A program made the position numbers and the translations under genes. A stretch of 64,000 nt of DNA from an uncultured Bacilli bacterium (GTDB taxonomy: Bacteria > Bacillota_I > Bacilli_A > RFN20 > CAG-449). Of this stretch, positions 7,308-11,128 are shown piece after piece; position 1 is the first letter of the stretch; every line of letters begins with the position of its first letter. The stretch spans positions 1,630-65,629 of the forward strand of contig CANQCZ010000005.1 of NCBI GenBank assembly GCA_947591215.1, in the 5' to 3' direction. Below the pieces are notes generated by a model that worked only from the letters and a program-made list of their open reading frames with translations, was not told the DNA's origin and did no database searches.

Positions 7308-7310
7308 AAG

Positions 7311-7350
7311 AAAAAAAAAAGAGTTAAGCCCGAAAGCTTAACTCTTTTTA
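7311..7350. terminator. Bidirectional rho-independent terminator
   Basis: A10, then stem gagttaagc, loop ccgaaa, stem gcttaactc, then ttttta. Confidence 0.7.
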
Positions 7351-8553
7351 AATGTCTTGTTCTTCGTAATCGTCGAAGTTTGCCCACCACTCAACAAGAT
7401 TTTTTATTTCACTATCTGAAATATATGCGGTTTGGAATCTTACTTCCTCCACTTGATACGGGTATTTTATAATTGCGTCACCTTGTCCTAGTAGTTGCTC
7501 GGCTCCTTTGTGATCTAATATCGTTACGCTATCGCGTACACTTACAACTTGTAACGCGATTCTTGTTGTTATGTTTGCTTTAATTAATCCTGTTATAACG
7601 TTAACTGTAGGGCGTTGAGTCGCTAAAATTAAATGATAACCGCACGCCCTGCCTATTTGAGCAATTCTTACGAGATAGCTTTCGACCTCATACCGACTTA
7701 CTAGCATTAAATCGGCTAACTCATCAATAATAATAAATTCATGAGGCAAAGGCTGATCGATAAGCTTATTATATTCATCTATGTTTTTAACTTTGTTAAG
7801 TTCAAAGATGTTATAACGGCTTTCTATCTCTTGACATATTGTCGCTAACTCTTGTATAGATTCGTTTACATCGTTTATTATTTTTGCTTGTGGTTCTCTT
7901 AAATATGGTTTAGGCGCAGAAAGAGCAGAATAAGCCGAAAATTCAACTCGTTTAGGGTCGAATAGGCGAAGCCTGAACTTGTACGGCTCATTATTTAATA
8001 GTAAGCTAGAAATTAAAGCATTTAATAAGCAAGATTTACCCGAGCCTGTAGATCCTGCAATTAAAACATGCGGGCATTTATTAAAGTCAATTATAACTTT
8101 TTCGTTATTGGTGTTTATTCCAATTACAGGCGATAAAGTTTTGTTTCCCTGAGGATTACAAAAACTAAACGGCACAAGCTGACGCGGTGAAGCTTCCATA
8201 TAAAGCGAAAAATCGCTTTTAAATTCGCCGAGAGTAAAAAAGATTTTACTTTTTAAAATTGCTTGTAGTGGTTTTTTTATTCTTTCAAGTTTATTTATAT
8301 CTAGCGGGTTTATTATATGGAAATCGTAACGGTTTAACGTGCATGAAGCATTTATTTTTAAAAGTTCCGCTTCTATTCCAAGATTATATAAAGCATTTGT
8401 TACAGCTTCCCCACTAATGAAAGACGTTTTTAAATCCTTATAAGGCTTTAAAATTGCTTGTGCGTCGATGTGATAATGTGCTATGATCTTTTTATTTTTT
8501 GGCGGTGGTGTTGCTGTTGGCTTCTTGTTAAATATATTTTTTAAGTTTCCCAT
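7348..8553 (-). CDS. FtsK/SpoIIIE-family DNA-translocase ATPase, soluble (no TM segment)
   Basis: Walker A LIAGSTGSGKS. Walker B IIIDELADL. ATQRP block of the FtsK motor domain. Confidence 0.7.
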   Translation of the reverse strand: MGNLKNIFNKKPTATPPPKNKKIIAHYHIDAQAILKPYKDLKTSFISGEAVTNALYNLGIEAELLKINASCTLNRYDFHIINPLDINKLERIKKPLQAILKSKIFFTLGEFKSDFSLYMEASPRQLVPFSFCNPQGNKTLSPVIGINTNNEKVIIDFNKCPHVLIAGSTGSGKSCLLNALISSLLLNNEPYKFRLRLFDPKRVEFSAYSALSAPKPYLREPQAKIINDVNESIQELATICQEIESRYNIFELNKVKNIDEYNKLIDQPLPHEFIIIDELADLMLVSRYEVESYLVRIAQIGRACGYHLILATQRPTVNVITGLIKANITTRIALQVVSVRDSVTILDHKGAEQLLGQGDAIIKYPYQVEEVRFQTAYISDSEIKNLVEWWANFDDYEEQDI

Positions 8554-8774
8554 TTTATAGCCTCCATGTTTAAATTAAAAAAAGTATTTTCTTTAAAAAA
8601 TATTATATCATCGTTTAAAAGTAAAATTGAACAGGCTTTAAAAAGTTTGAAGTCTTGAACTTGTCGGAGCGTTTGGCGTTCTTCTTGTGAGTTTAAACGC
8701 TTCAACGCTTCCGCTAGGCTTGACGCCTTTAAAAGTCCCACGCTTTGCCCGTGTTTGAATTGATAAAACGCCAT
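8541..8774 (-). CDS. Hypothetical protein
   Basis: 77-aa ORF co-oriented with the FtsK-like gene, overlapping at start and stop. Confidence 0.3.
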   Translation of the reverse strand: MAFYQFKHGQSVGLLKASSLAEALKRLNSQEERQTLRQVQDFKLFKACSILLLNDDIIFFKENTFFNLNMEAIKWET

Positions 8775-8792
8775 AATATCAAAAATAGGGGC

Positions 8793-8978
8793 TTAAATCG
8801 CCCCTTGTAATTTCTCGCGTGTTTTCTTGATTCTGACAGCAGGCCGGCACGCGGTCGCCTTATATTCGATTGCTAGACGTCGGGCTTCTTCTCGTGTGTC
8901 GGCTTCGTCTTCTTCCTCCCACCCGTAGCCGTAATTAGTTAAAATTTTATAAATGTCTTTTGTTTTTCTTATATACAT
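8793..8978 (-). CDS. Hypothetical small protein
   Basis: 61-aa ORF in the same leftward operon. Confidence 0.25.
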   Translation of the reverse strand: MYIRKTKDIYKILTNYGYGWEEEDEADTREEARRLAIEYKATACRPAVRIKKTREKLQGAI

Positions 8979-8995
8979 AGTTTTTTATCCTCCAT

Positions 8996-9697
8996 CTAGT
9001 TATTAAAATTTGCGCGTACTGTAATAAAATCAATTTTATTAAAATCAAGCTTCTTTAATTCGTTTTTATATTCTTTGCATGCTTGAATTAAATAATTAAA
9101 AAGTGTTTCGTCGTCTTGTAAGTCTCTATTTAAGCGTAATTTTATATTGTTGTATAGATTATTGATATTTTGCGAATTATTAATATAAATTAATAGTTGC
9201 GCCGTGTCATAGCTGTTATAACCGCAACAAAGATTTATTAAATCGTTTTTGATTGGTTCTTTAAAATTAAAATCAAATGAGTTAAAAACTGAATCATAAA
9301 ATCTTATATGTGCATGATCTATTAACTCATACATTATACAATTATTTATAATGCTTCTTTTGTCTTCATCTTTTAAATATTTTAAAAAGTCGCTTTTTTT
9401 GGTGAAATTATTTTTTGTTTCGTTCCAATATGGAAAATTTGCCCAATCTCTACGGCGTTTTTCTGCTTCAAGCGTTTTATAGTGCATTAACTCAAATTCT
9501 TTTATGTTTAGGTCTTTAAGTTTTTCTTCTTTTACACCGTAACCGATTTGATATTGTCTTAAATCATCGCCCATTTTGTACGGTGTTATTATCTTTTCGC
9601 CTCTTATTGCGCTAGCCTGATAAATGAGCCCGTTTTCTAGATCATAATAAATATGACCGTCGTTTGTCCTGTAAAGGTTTTTGCTTAATTGTTTCAT
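8996..9697 (-). CDS. Hypothetical protein, first gene of the leftward operon
   Basis: 233-aa ORF with RBS AGGAGG upstream. No recognisable motif. Confidence 0.4.
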   Translation of the reverse strand: MKQLSKNLYRTNDGHIYYDLENGLIYQASAIRGEKIITPYKMGDDLRQYQIGYGVKEEKLKDLNIKEFELMHYKTLEAEKRRRDWANFPYWNETKNNFTKKSDFLKYLKDEDKRSIINNCIMYELIDHAHIRFYDSVFNSFDFNFKEPIKNDLINLCCGYNSYDTAQLLIYINNSQNINNLYNNIKLRLNRDLQDDETLFNYLIQACKEYKNELKKLDFNKIDFITVRANFNN

Positions 9698-9730
9698 GTT
9701 TTCTTTTTCCTCCTATGATTCACAATTAAA

Positions 9731-9825
9731 TATTACGATTTCGTAATACTACTATTATTATATTACGATTTCGTAATAATTCAACATTTTTTAATATCAA
9801 AATATTACTTTTTCGTAATAATTAT
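9731..9825. promoter_or_regulatory. Operator region with two copies of the 18-bp perfect palindrome TATTACGATTTCGTAATA plus a degenerate third copy. It sits between a leftward operon and a rightward HTH gene.
   Basis: Palindrome copies at about 9733-9750 and 9762-9779. Variant aatattactttttcgtaata at about 9801-9822. A related aaatattacgatataataatattac at about 9998-10015. Confidence 0.55.
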
Positions 9826-10039
9826 TTTGTATGTCAATTCTTTTAAGTTTTGAAATGCTTTTATTTACTGTTTGGCTTGTCTGATTTGGCGGGGTGGTGG
9901 GGGATTTTGGGCACCCTATAGGGTCGGCGGGGTGAGTGCTTTTTCCACCCGAAAATATAAAAAGAGTTATTTTTATTGTTGACAATTCAAAATATTACGA
10001 TATAATAATATTACAAAATAGTAATAAAGGAGTTTATTT

Positions 10040-10294
10040 ATGAACGCTATTGAAGTCGTATTTACCTGTCTAAAAGAAAAGAATACTACACAAGAACAGT
10101 TAGCACATCTTTTAGGTTACAAATCTCAATCAGGGCTCGCTAATCGTTTAAGAGGTAATAGTTTAAGAGTAGATACTTTAGTTAAAATTCTTACAGGTCT
10201 TGGCTATACCTTAGTTGTTAAACCTTATACATTCGCTGATAAAGAAAAAGAAAACTATCATATCATTACTAATGATGAGGTAACCGAAGAATGA
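10040..10294 (+). CDS. Small HTH (XRE/Cro-like) DNA-binding protein
   Basis: QEQLAHLLGYKSQSGLANRL helix-turn-helix pattern. The stop overlaps the recombinase start. Confidence 0.5.
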   Translation: MNAIEVVFTCLKEKNTTQEQLAHLLGYKSQSGLANRLRGNSLRVDTLVKILTGLGYTLVVKPYTFADKEKENYHIITNDEVTEE

Positions 10295-10887
10295 TTTACG
10301 GATATTGTCGAGTTTCTACCAAAGGGCAAGCTTTATATGGAAACTCCCTCGAAGAGCAAAAGCAACAAATACTTTTTCAATATCCTAATGCTGAAATCAT
10401 TGTAGAAGCCTACACCGCTTATAAAGACAAACGACCATTATTTGATGAACTTATCTCTAAAGCGGTTGAGGGTGACATCATTGTTGTTACCAAACTAGAT
10501 CGATTTTGTAGAAGTGTAACTAAAGGTGTTCCAACTTTGAATGAGTTATACTCCAAAGGTGTAAAGCTTCATATCTTAAATATGGGAATTATTGAGAACA
10601 CACCTATTGGTAATTTGCTTTTTAACGTTCTACAGTCTTTCGCTCAATTTGAAAGAGATATGATCGTAGAACGTACCACTAACGGAAAAGAAATTGCTCG
10701 TATGAATCCTAATTACAAAGAGGGTAAACCTAGACTTGAAATTGATAGCGAATTATTTGAAAAGTTATATTATAAATGGAAGTCAAAAAATATTACCGCT
10801 GTTGAAGCAATGTCTCAGTTAGGACTCAAACCAAATACTTTTTATCGTCGTGTAGGTGATTTTGAACGAATGCGAGGTATAATGTAA
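10291..10887 (+). CDS. Small serine recombinase (resolvase/invertase family)
   Basis: N-terminal catalytic motif YGYCRVSTKGQ. Size 198 aa. C-terminal HTH-like tail. Confidence 0.85.
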   Translation: MIYGYCRVSTKGQALYGNSLEEQKQQILFQYPNAEIIVEAYTAYKDKRPLFDELISKAVEGDIIVVTKLDRFCRSVTKGVPTLNELYSKGVKLHILNMGIIENTPIGNLLFNVLQSFAQFERDMIVERTTNGKEIARMNPNYKEGKPRLEIDSELFEKLYYKWKSKNITAVEAMSQLGLKPNTFYRRVGDFERMRGIM

Positions 10888-11052
10888 ATGTTGGATATAA
10901 AGACTTTCAAGAAAAAGTATGATGAGCAGAAGTTCGGTAAGTCAAAACCTGTAGATGTTAAGAAACCACTTAAACCTAAGAAAGAGGATCCAAAGGATAA
11001 AGGTTTAACTTATGAGGAAATAGATAACTTCTCATTATTTGATGACGATTAG
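10888..11052 (+). CDS. Small Lys-rich hypothetical protein (54 aa)
   Basis: ATG overlaps the recombinase stop (ATGTAAATG). Not in the supplied ORF track because it is under 60 aa. Confidence 0.25.
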   Translation: MLDIKTFKKKYDEQKFGKSKPVDVKKPLKPKKEDPKDKGLTYEEIDNFSLFDDD

Positions 11053-11128
11053 ATAAACGGATCTAATTCAGAAGCAAAAGGGCTTATGTAAAAACATAGG
11101 TTCTTTTTTATTTTTGGGAGGTAAACGA

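Follow-up and report, generated by a model that had tools for sequence, protein, structure and literature searches.

An FtsK-like ATPase and a small serine recombinase between terS and terL: an accessory module of uncultured Firmicute phages

Why should genes for a DNA motor and a site-specific recombinase stand between the two terminase genes of a prophage? The question is raised by a stretch of 64,000 nucleotides from an uncultured Bacilli bacterium (GenBank assembly GCA_947591215.1, contig CANQCZ010000005.1; the whole stretch is called the window), in which a block of about 3.8 kb separates terS, the gene of the small terminase subunit, from terL, the gene of the large one. The block consists of a leftward operon, with a gene for an FtsK/SpoIIIE-like ATPase, and a divergent rightward operon, with a gene for a small serine recombinase, and it has a terminator at each edge (Table 1). 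The original prediction had taken it for a nested mobile or hitch-hiking cassette. The comparison with related phages argues for an accessory module, insulated in its transcription and conserved in the lineage, at a fixed terS-terL hotspot of uncultured temperate Firmicute siphophages, and against a recent insertion.

The block genes were identified by a six-frame listing of open reading frames (ORFs) and by family scans (Pfam and PHROG), and all of the predicted elements were recovered with their coordinates. Coordinates are positions in the window, and L-numbers denote related loci or contigs, mostly from IMG/VR and some from ENA.

Conservation and regulation of the block

The ORF at 6750-7307 is, judged by its family matches, a genuine TerS of the P22 gp3 type, as had been proposed (PF16677, 3e-11; phrog_606, 8e-12). 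Its PF16677 score of 43.8 bits lies above the curated cut-off of 29.4, and orthologues were found upstream of terL and portal in all of the relatives, the one in L002 sharing 38% identity with the TerS of the window. The adjacency of terS and terL is indeed interrupted by the block.

A nucleotide search of positions 6000-13000 against cultured phages returned no relative, and a TerL search of IMG/VR returned three. L002, a high-GC phage whose TerL has 49% identity to that of the window, carries terS, three leftward genes (the FtsK-like one and two further ORFs), a rightward serine recombinase gene and terL, in this order. The order terS, FtsK-like operon, recombinase (with a helix-turn-helix, HTH, gene in some), terL and portal was found in L006, L007, L008 and L169, whose FtsK-like proteins are 95%, 80%, 42% and 43% identical to that of the window, respectively. 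For a survey of loci, IMG/VR was scanned with an alignment of the FtsK family, and the ORFs were labelled by phmmer with the window proteins. A short FtsK-like gene was present in 50 loci, 41 of which had enough downstream sequence to be judged. A convergent TerS homologue lay within 2.6 kb of the FtsK-like gene in 30 of these 41 informative loci; terL was on the other side of the gene in 24, and a serine recombinase was in between in 17. The shared synteny persists at identities to the window of 29-64% for TerL and 24-41% for TerS, and the same block was seen in L002, L006-L008, L089-L121, L136 and L169. The block and its intergenic region had a single orientation in all of the related contigs.

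If an integrative or mobilisable element, or a hitch-hiker, had entered the space between terS and terL, a block with its own recombinase, regulator and terminators would be accounted for. Such an event would also fit the relatives with a similar TerL that have no FtsK-like gene and recombinase, namely L001 and Clostridium phage Maintenon, the closest cultured TerL relative (about 42-46% identity), whose terS-terL gap holds small ORFs and two tRNAs. In L168, terS adjoins terL and the FtsK-like operon is located upstream of terS. The identities of the FtsK-like protein and of TerL to the window are uncorrelated (rho 0.007), which suggests modular exchange, with all of the comparisons near saturation and giving no verdict on co-inheritance. 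Against such an insertion, the position and orientation of the block are kept across very divergent phages, its GC content agrees with the remainder of the phage, and neither terminal repeats nor a target duplication were detected. The repeats that had been predicted to mark insertion ends did not appear when 7280-7380 was aligned with 11030-11140, no shared direct or inverted repeat going beyond those of shuffled sequences. Moreover, no known type of integrase is a resolvase-type enzyme of 198 aa, and a relative encodes a separate integrase (see below). L001 still has the gap, occupied by an HTH gene and by a leftward gene homologous to one in L170; the gap is ancestral and not the product of an insertion, because relatives without the FtsK-like gene still carry it filled. 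Conserved synteny, one of the two findings that the original prediction had set against its own cassette reading, was thus observed, whereas the other, a different identity for 6750-7307, was not. Since the synteny is conserved in divergent relatives and flanking repeats are absent, the nested-insertion reading fails; we consider it largely refuted and scarcely credible.

The two terminators that had been predicted, one after terS (7316-7349) and one before terL (11076-11107), were both confirmed, and the first is bidirectional because an A-run precedes its stem and a T-run follows it. A 342-bp intergenic region between the two operons contains a promoter for each and copies of an 18-bp operator palindrome (Table 1). 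With up to three mismatches allowed, the palindrome TATTACGAnTTCGTAATA gave 10 strand-hits, that is, five sites, all within 9731-10026, where 0.67 were expected; the remainder of the 64 kb had no match. These palindromes are real and greatly exceed chance. With a terminator at each edge and operators confined to this intergenic region, the block forms a regulatory unit of its own, insulated from both terminase genes, and the prediction of a self-regulated, divergent two-operon unit stands.

In an alignment of the window, L006 and L007, the columns of the intergenic region are 92% identical. The operator plan can be recognized in distant loci, with three palindromes beside the leftward operon and one within the rightward TTGACA/TATAAT promoter. 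L089, L091 and L169 have the three-operator layout of the window and half-sites that co-vary in sequence: ATTACGA in the window, AACGCG in L089, and AACACG in L091 and L169. Such co-variation would be expected of palindromes to which the HTH protein of the same locus binds. Homologues of the 84-aa HTH protein hold the same position in L006, L007, L089-L091, L109, L110, L118 and L169. We infer from this arrangement that the protein is an autorepressor and also a repressor of the leftward operon, acting through the five 18-bp palindromes, with TATTACGATTTCGTAATA as its putative target sequence.

Between the divergent promoters there is a G/C-rich element, which is conserved in L006 and L007. Motifs akin to GGCGGGGTG, GGGGGA, GGGGTGA and CGAAAATAAAAAG recur in the intergenic regions of L089, L090, L091, L110, L118 and L169. 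Both copies of the 9-mer GGCGGGGTG are intergenic, yet two matches in 64 kb are not above chance. The element is a candidate cis site for protein binding, such as a recombination site (res), an origin or a motor-loading site. Rfam gave no match to it, and neither strand had a significant fold (z-scores of 0.06 and 0.31), which leaves a structured RNA unsupported. A minus-strand 62-aa ORF across it was excluded as coding by an 11-bp indel in L007, and a possible likeness of GGGCACCC to site I of the Sin resolvase could not be verified and was dropped. Iteron-like repeats were observed in the intergenic regions of some relatives, with six copies of GGGG(C/T)AGTCAC in L109 and pairs of AAGTGA(A/T)AAAGTGA in L090, L110 and L169.

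The FtsK-like ATPase and the recombinase

The best solved match of the FtsK-like ATPase is the motor of Pseudomonas aeruginosa FtsK (2IUU, 1e-52). The Walker A (G167-S174), Walker B (D277/E278) and TQRP (T312-P315) motifs are invariant in the alignment of 37 family members. With its catalytic residues invariant and a cellular FtsK motor as nearest solved relative, the protein looks like an active motor. It has no membrane anchor (maximum 19-residue hydropathy of 1.26, no transmembrane segment), and it has no gamma (winged-helix) domain, because the FtsK match ends at residue 391 of 401 and the residues that remain are too few for a domain of about 60 aa. It is predicted, therefore, to be a soluble alpha-beta motor with no built-in sequence reader. 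It probably carries the FtsK-alpha domain of the cellular clade, as suggested by the precomputed Pfam hit of a family member and by the solved FtsK motor match.

The family has many soluble homologues of 330-400 aa, many of them on contigs of 42-47 kb. There are 381 INPHARED records matching phage FtsK-like genes, and annotations of FtsK/SpoIIIE-like ATPases run to hundreds of phage genomes, among them those of Bacillus phages, cluster J mycobacteriophages and gut phages; a literature search found no demonstrated function for them. A tblastn search with the window protein against cultured phages gave nothing above 38% identity. The scan of genome contigs with the FtsK-like alignment detected only cellular FtsK genes of 700-900 aa (L009-L088), which are uninformative on the prophage context. 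In L182, a 2.8-kb ENA contig with an identical 233-aa gene, the FtsK-like ORF (1573-2743) is split into two calls (99 and 283 aa), a frameshifted variant or an assembly error at low (2x) coverage.

The Bacillus and Geobacillus phages Gamma/Wbeta and GBSV1 also encode a soluble ATPase of about 400 aa that is FtsK-like; its gene belongs to an operon of small genes, an HTH_3 gene diverges from this operon, and a recombinase gene lies nearby. For Bacillus phages, Pathria et al. (2012, PMC3357382) proposed a DNA translocation operon, which is not essential to phage 0305phi8-36. The module could, by analogy, serve DNA transfer, with the FtsK-like protein as a coupling or TraB-like pump by which phage DNA, engaged at an oriT- or clt-like G-rich site, passes from cell to cell or between compartments (e.g., into forespores), and with the recombinase processing the DNA. 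The operons proposed by Pathria et al. combine a MobC-like relaxase with a coupling ATPase and, in temperate members, are adjoined by recombinase genes (PMC3357382); in Gamma and GBSV1, the HTH gene is followed by small ORFs, the FtsK-like gene and then a gene for a protein of about 205-226 aa, beside an integrase. The ATPase also matches TcpA, the coupling protein of pCW3 (2.5e-19), and the G-rich repeats bear a loose likeness to KOPS or clt motifs.

Several observations oppose a transfer function. Neither a relaxase nor a type IV secretion system was found, no block protein has a transmembrane segment or a membrane anchor, and the family scans gave no match to relaxase or Rep families for any of them. 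The ATPase is far closer to cellular FtsK than to TcpA, matches TraB and TraD at only 1e-4, and lacks the gamma/winged-helix domain for sequence recognition. Its identity to the Gamma and GBSV1 proteins is just 23-26%; in those phages, unlike in the window, the module is located beside lysis/lysogeny genes rather than in the terS-terL gap, a gene for a Rep/MobC-like protein comes after the FtsK-like gene, and the neighboring recombinase is the phage integrase. The 233-aa protein of the window, for which a Rep or relaxase fold had been suggested, gave no such signal and has no pairwise similarity to Gamma gp23, GBSV1 ORF43 or the 209-aa ORF of L002. Nor is it conserved: three homologues were found among 5.8 billion proteins in a word-indexed search, and only its own cluster among 1.84 billion representatives in an exhaustive profile search. 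Its AF2 model (pLDDT 43.7) is too poor for a fold search, and the suggestion is left unsupported. We therefore regard DNA transfer as very unlikely.

Firmicutes are known to have mobile operons in which an FtsK-type ATPase, a D5-family primase-helicase and a resolvase are joined (PMC10853773). The phage of the window similarly has a DUF5906/D5-type gene upstream, but its genes are within a complete tailed-phage genome and are split by terS, and the ATPases of the mobile operons have been assigned to a clade (PMC10853773) different from the probable cellular clade of the window protein. An example of such a mobile-operon layout, counted in favor of DNA transfer, is L170 (positions 1-5300, at the end of a 283-kb ENA contig). 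This locus has a close FtsK-like homologue with 42% identity directly beside host genes, together with a divergent HTH gene, two Xis/HTH_17-like small genes and a D5_N/DUF5906 primase-helicase, and no terS; it looks to be a different element, possibly satellite-like or integrative, with the module in common.

The PF00239 match of the recombinase spans residues 2-137, and the motifs YGYCRVSTKGQ and KLDRFCRS align with Tn3 and gamma-delta resolvase. The best solved-structure match is Tn3 resolvase (2e-14), with which residues 2-190 align (to residue 181 of the chain), C-terminal HTH included; gamma-delta resolvase and Gin invertase match about as well. The protein is, on these alignments, a resolvase/invertase-type small serine recombinase, with a catalytic domain and a C-terminal HTH. 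As in Tn3 and gamma-delta, its gene stands beside a divergent promoter and regulatory site. In the Tn3 family, the resolvase itself is the repressor, and res consists of three subsites of 25-34 bp. By contrast, regulation in the window appears to depend on 18-bp palindromes and on a Cro-like HTH protein distinct from the recombinase, and there is no transposase.

Among cultured phages, the closest relatives of the recombinase are the gp55 proteins of the Clostridioides difficile phages phiCD38-2, phiCD111 and CDSH1 (41% identity over 94%), which also combine Resolvase with a C-terminal HTH; recombinases of Firmicute plasmids reach 43-47%. In phiCD38-2, a headful-packaging siphophage, the recombinase gene adjoins the terminase genes as it does in the window, but gp55, the last gene, immediately precedes terS on the circular map and has neither an FtsK-like partner nor a divergent HTH operon. 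Nothing resembling the G-rich element was found upstream of it. In a published listing (PMC8026635), this phage is a plasmid prophage that packages by headful and has ParA/ParB and the small serine recombinase, whereas the lineage of the window integrates via a large serine integrase in at least one member. The function of gp55 is likewise putative.

The separate integrase was found in L171, an extended version of the L090 contig, as a 523-aa protein with Resolvase, Recombinase and Zn_ribbon_recom domains encoded away from the block. The lysogeny module of L171 also has a leftward gene for a 212-aa HTH_3 CI-like repressor, and its rightward early genes include ERF and a YqaJ-type exonuclease. 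In the window, the recombinase gene is internal to the integrated prophage and not at its end. Because of this position and of the large serine integrase in the relative, the enzyme is taken to be a second recombinase and not the lysogeny integrase.

Another use of the recombinase, in line with the unusual packaging or inversion system that the original prediction had named as an alternative, could be a Gin/Hin-type inversion switch that flips, for example, the promoter region, or a role linked to packaging, in which it would act near pac, the first headful having two of its sites and being circularized after injection. The match to phrog_125 (annotated as DNA invertase, 2e-45) and the score of Gin agree with this, and so does the position just downstream of a terS of the P22 gp3 type, the phiCD38-2 homologue being just upstream of terS. 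In addition, operator copies (I8 and I17) flank a segment of about 200 bp as mutually inverted repeats. There is no convincing hix- or gix-like inverted pair, however, and a search of 41 kb for invertible segments detected only AT-rich chance pairs and no long inverted repeats; the uniform orientation of the block and intergenic region in all related contigs also argues against a switch. Both variants are considered highly improbable.

Proposed function of the module

The function that we consider most likely, with low confidence and by analogy, is plasmid-style resolution or handling of phage DNA. The Cro-like HTH protein, encoded by the first rightward gene, would bind the five palindromes and repress the leftward promoter as well as the consensus promoter of its own operon. 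The same operon would also make the resolvase/invertase-type recombinase, of a kind carried by Firmicute plasmids and plasmid-prophages, and the leftward operon would make fast-evolving cargo and, from its last gene, the soluble motor. FtsK alpha-beta motors are hexameric translocases of double-stranded DNA. The recombinase would act at a site in or near the G-rich intergenic element and keep circular copies of the phage genome monomeric, or re-circularize them, in a plasmid-style multimer resolution analogous to P1 Cre-lox or res/resolvase, while the FtsK-like motor would assist by moving or untangling phage DNA. The variable leftward ORFs would be conflict or establishment cargo, and integration would be left to a different enzyme, the large serine integrase. 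The module of the terS-terL gap together with this mechanism is the best explanation at hand and, taken whole, is given an even chance of being correct.

The closest conceptual parallels are FtsK-XerCD/dif and P1 Cre-loxP, in which a translocase or a packaging-proximal site is combined with a site-specific recombinase. These systems keep circular replicons monomeric or circularize terminally redundant DNA. XerCD and Cre are tyrosine recombinases, and FtsK activates XerD via its gamma domain. The window has, in contrast, a serine enzyme, an ATPase with no gamma domain and a cognate site that is only a candidate, and the analogy is a functional one.

Several findings weigh against resolution as the function. 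Neither a res-like array nor a hix/gix-like inverted pair was recognized near the recombinase gene, and the G-rich element and the 18-bp palindromes are the only candidates for a recombination site. The palindromes, too short and with a single central base, are unlike a serine-recombinase crossover site. Cellular FtsK is coupled to recombination by its gamma domain, which the ATPase lacks. A dedicated cyclization or resolution system is not obviously needed, because the phages integrate and a relative encodes ERF and the YqaJ-type exonuclease. The recombinase also appears dispensable for the FtsK-like gene, since it is replaced or absent in relatives: AbiLi/AbiLii take its place in L112 and L119 (AbiLi, 5e-48 and 1e-57; AbiLii, 1e-9), an HTH gene and then a Mrr-like nuclease gene occupy the slot in L134 and L136, and L001 keeps the locus with no recombinase at all. 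Finally, the leftward operons of relatives contain LPD29, DUF3560, a DUF4942 methylase, S-AdoMet lyase, Dam and Bro-N/Ant antirepressor domains, a cargo that points to conflict functions rather than to DNA maintenance.

Further variation was observed around the same genes. Two non-orthologous types of serine recombinase share one slot, one of about 190 aa with Resolvase and HTH, the other of 210-270 aa with Resolvase and Recombinase. A 256-aa ORF directly upstream of terL in L003 (2715-3485) has the Recombinase domain PF07508 only, with no match to the Resolvase catalytic domain, and may be a degenerate remnant of the slot. The AbiLi/AbiLii or Mrr-like genes are located at 4653-6639 in L112, 3852-5898 in L119, 6245-6751 in L134, 6542-7048 in L136 and, near the slot, at 8001-8573 in L168; they mark the terS-terL gap as a defence-gene hotspot in related phages. 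In the leftward operon, the FtsK-like gene is always the last, and the genes that precede it differ between loci. It appears, across the loci compared, to be the constant anchor, and the upstream genes to be fast-evolving and mostly ORFans.

A strong rival to DNA resolution, which we hold to be possible though doubtful, is that the block is a conflict island for defence, anti-defence or superinfection exclusion. The FtsK-like motor would serve as conserved effector or helper and pump or strip DNA of invaders or of the host, the recombinase would be one of several interchangeable DNA-targeting cargo genes, and expression would take place from the prophage or on entry. This agrees with the moron-like layout, with its own promoters, terminators and repressor, with the hypervariable leftward genes, and with the AbiL pairs, Mrr-like nucleases, methylases, SAM lyase and other domains listed above. 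The leftward-operon domains among them have been tied to early-invasion and counter-restriction genes of phages and conjugative elements, and solo LPD domains have been proposed as early-invasion facilitators (Iyer et al., PMC5512222). The ATPase matches the FtsK-type modules of SspH (C-terminus, 6e-53) and mad8 (2e-29) in PADLOC, and a capture of HerA/FtsK is a described theme in anti-invader systems (PMC10853773). On the other hand, no block protein of the window completes any known defence system in PADLOC v2, the matches being generic FtsK/HerA-domain ones with no partners, and only a minority of the 99 leftward-operon proteins scanned in relatives had any domain match. The recombinase belongs to a family typical of plasmid maintenance and not of defence, and an anchor gene kept over such divergence looks more like a life-cycle function than like swappable cargo.

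A more speculative idea, and in our judgment an unlikely one, is that the motor, the recombinase and the G-rich site near pac/terS form an unrecognized DNA-handling machine for headful packaging or genome entry. Such a machine might circularize or resolve genome copies via a site in the terminal redundancy of the first headful. Alternatively, the phage translocase might pull in or clear incoming DNA, with the fast-evolving upstream genes as specificity or anti-defence partners.

Features, setting in the prophage and significance

The features of the block and its two flanking genes are collected in Table 1. The 77-aa ORF had no match in Pfam, PHROG, PADLOC and the other family scans, and the 61-aa ORF had no significant match in Pfam and PHROG. 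An acidic tail resembling that of the 54-aa ORF is also present in L170 and L110. The start of TerL is most probably the ATG at 11129, after a GGGAGG ribosome-binding site, rather than the TTG at 11114; the TerL orthologues of L006 and L007 have 558 aa.

Table 1. Features of the block between terS and terL and of its flanks (positions in the window).
Feature	Position	Strand	Evidence or remark
terS (left flank, context only)	6750-7307	+	PF16677 GP3_package 3e-11; phrog_606 terminase small subunit 8e-12
Bidirectional intrinsic terminator, common to terS and the leftward operon	7316-7349		15-bp stem, A-run before, T-run after
FtsK/SpoIIIE-like ATPase, 401 aa, Walker A GSTGSGKS	7348-8553	-	PF01580 9e-37; phrog_1358 1e-81
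77-aa ORF	8541-8774	-	conserved in the closest relatives L005-L007 only
61-aa ORF	8793-8978	-	ORF listing
233-aa ORFan, first gene of the leftward operon	8996-9697	-	ORF listing
Three 18-bp palindromic operators overlapping the leftward promoter	9731-9748, 9761-9778, 9803-9820		palindrome scan
Leftward promoter TTGAAT-16-TATAAT	9784-9757	-	pattern scan
Conserved G/C-rich element between the divergent promoters, about 65-80 bp	9888-9965		GGCGGGGTG twice, GGGGGA, GGGGTGA, then CGAAAATATAAAAAG
Rightward promoter, perfect sigma-70 consensus TTGACA-16-TATAAT	9979-10006	+	pattern scan
Two operator copies overlapping the rightward promoter	9993-10010, 10009-10026		palindrome scan
Cro/XRE-type HTH protein, 84 aa	10040-10294	+	HTH_3 PF01381 3e-08
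Small serine recombinase, 198 aa, N-terminus MIYGYCRVSTKGQ	10291-10887	+	PF00239 5e-31; phrog_125 DNA invertase 2e-45
54-aa ORF, acidic C-terminus (…NFSLFDDD)	10888-11052	+	kept in L006 and L007
Intrinsic terminator closing the HTH-recombinase operon	11076-11107	+	14-pair stem, then T-run
terL (right flank, context only)	11129-12805	+	phrog_38 1e-57; PF22530

The window holds a prophage that is cut at its left end and lies next to host genes. The left end has a D5/DUF5906 gene fragment and a C5 methylase gene, followed by head and tail genes, a holin gene at about 28.3-28.7 kb and an AT-rich stretch; the ATP-synthase genes of the host start at about 41.5 kb. The early region includes, upstream of terS, a gene for a PAPS-reductase-like protein (1073-1639) and the gene for the 520-aa C5 cytosine methylase (2055-3617), and relatives have methylases and a SAM-synthetase-like gene at similar positions. 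A diversity-generating retroelement is located at the tail-fibre end (24419-27342). Its variable repeat (25926-26003) is the 3' end of the gene for a 531-aa BppU_N-type tail protein, the template repeat (26123-26200) is 83% identical to it with mismatches at template adenines, and the reverse transcriptase gene (26323-27342) matches RVT_1 (2e-15) and phrog_1423 (2e-66). The AT-rich stretch (29000-40000, GC 0.24-0.29), between the phage lysis genes and the ATP-synthase operon, encodes three paralogous XRE-type HTH proteins (35302, 38154 and 39179) and an AAA_14/DUF4143 ATPase (36347-37855). It also has two large ORFs with no family match (29469-30923 and 31528-32523) and one that matches phrog_33734 (32687-34861).

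It is already known that phage FtsK-like genes are common and that small serine recombinases stand beside terminase genes in cultured phages, e.g., phiCD38-2. A literature search found no description of the combination that the sequences suggest here, in which a motor-only FtsK-like anchor in the terS-terL gap is joined by a co-varying Cro-like circuit of four to five operators, a G-rich element and a swappable recombinase/Abi/nuclease slot in a large uncultured lineage.

If the block proves to be moron cargo only, its annotation is still corrected, since it is neither a nested mobile element nor the integrase. The terS-terL gap offers a predictable hotspot for mining the defence and counter-defence genes of gut prophages, such as AbiL, Mrr-like nucleases, SAM lyase and methylases. 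The lineage also gives a clean comparative handle on phage FtsK-like proteins, with a fixed anchor, a private repressor/operator circuit, a conserved non-coding element and a usual recombinase partner. A DNA-handling machine, if it were true, would provide a first function for the widespread and unexplained FtsK-like genes of temperate Gram-positive phages.

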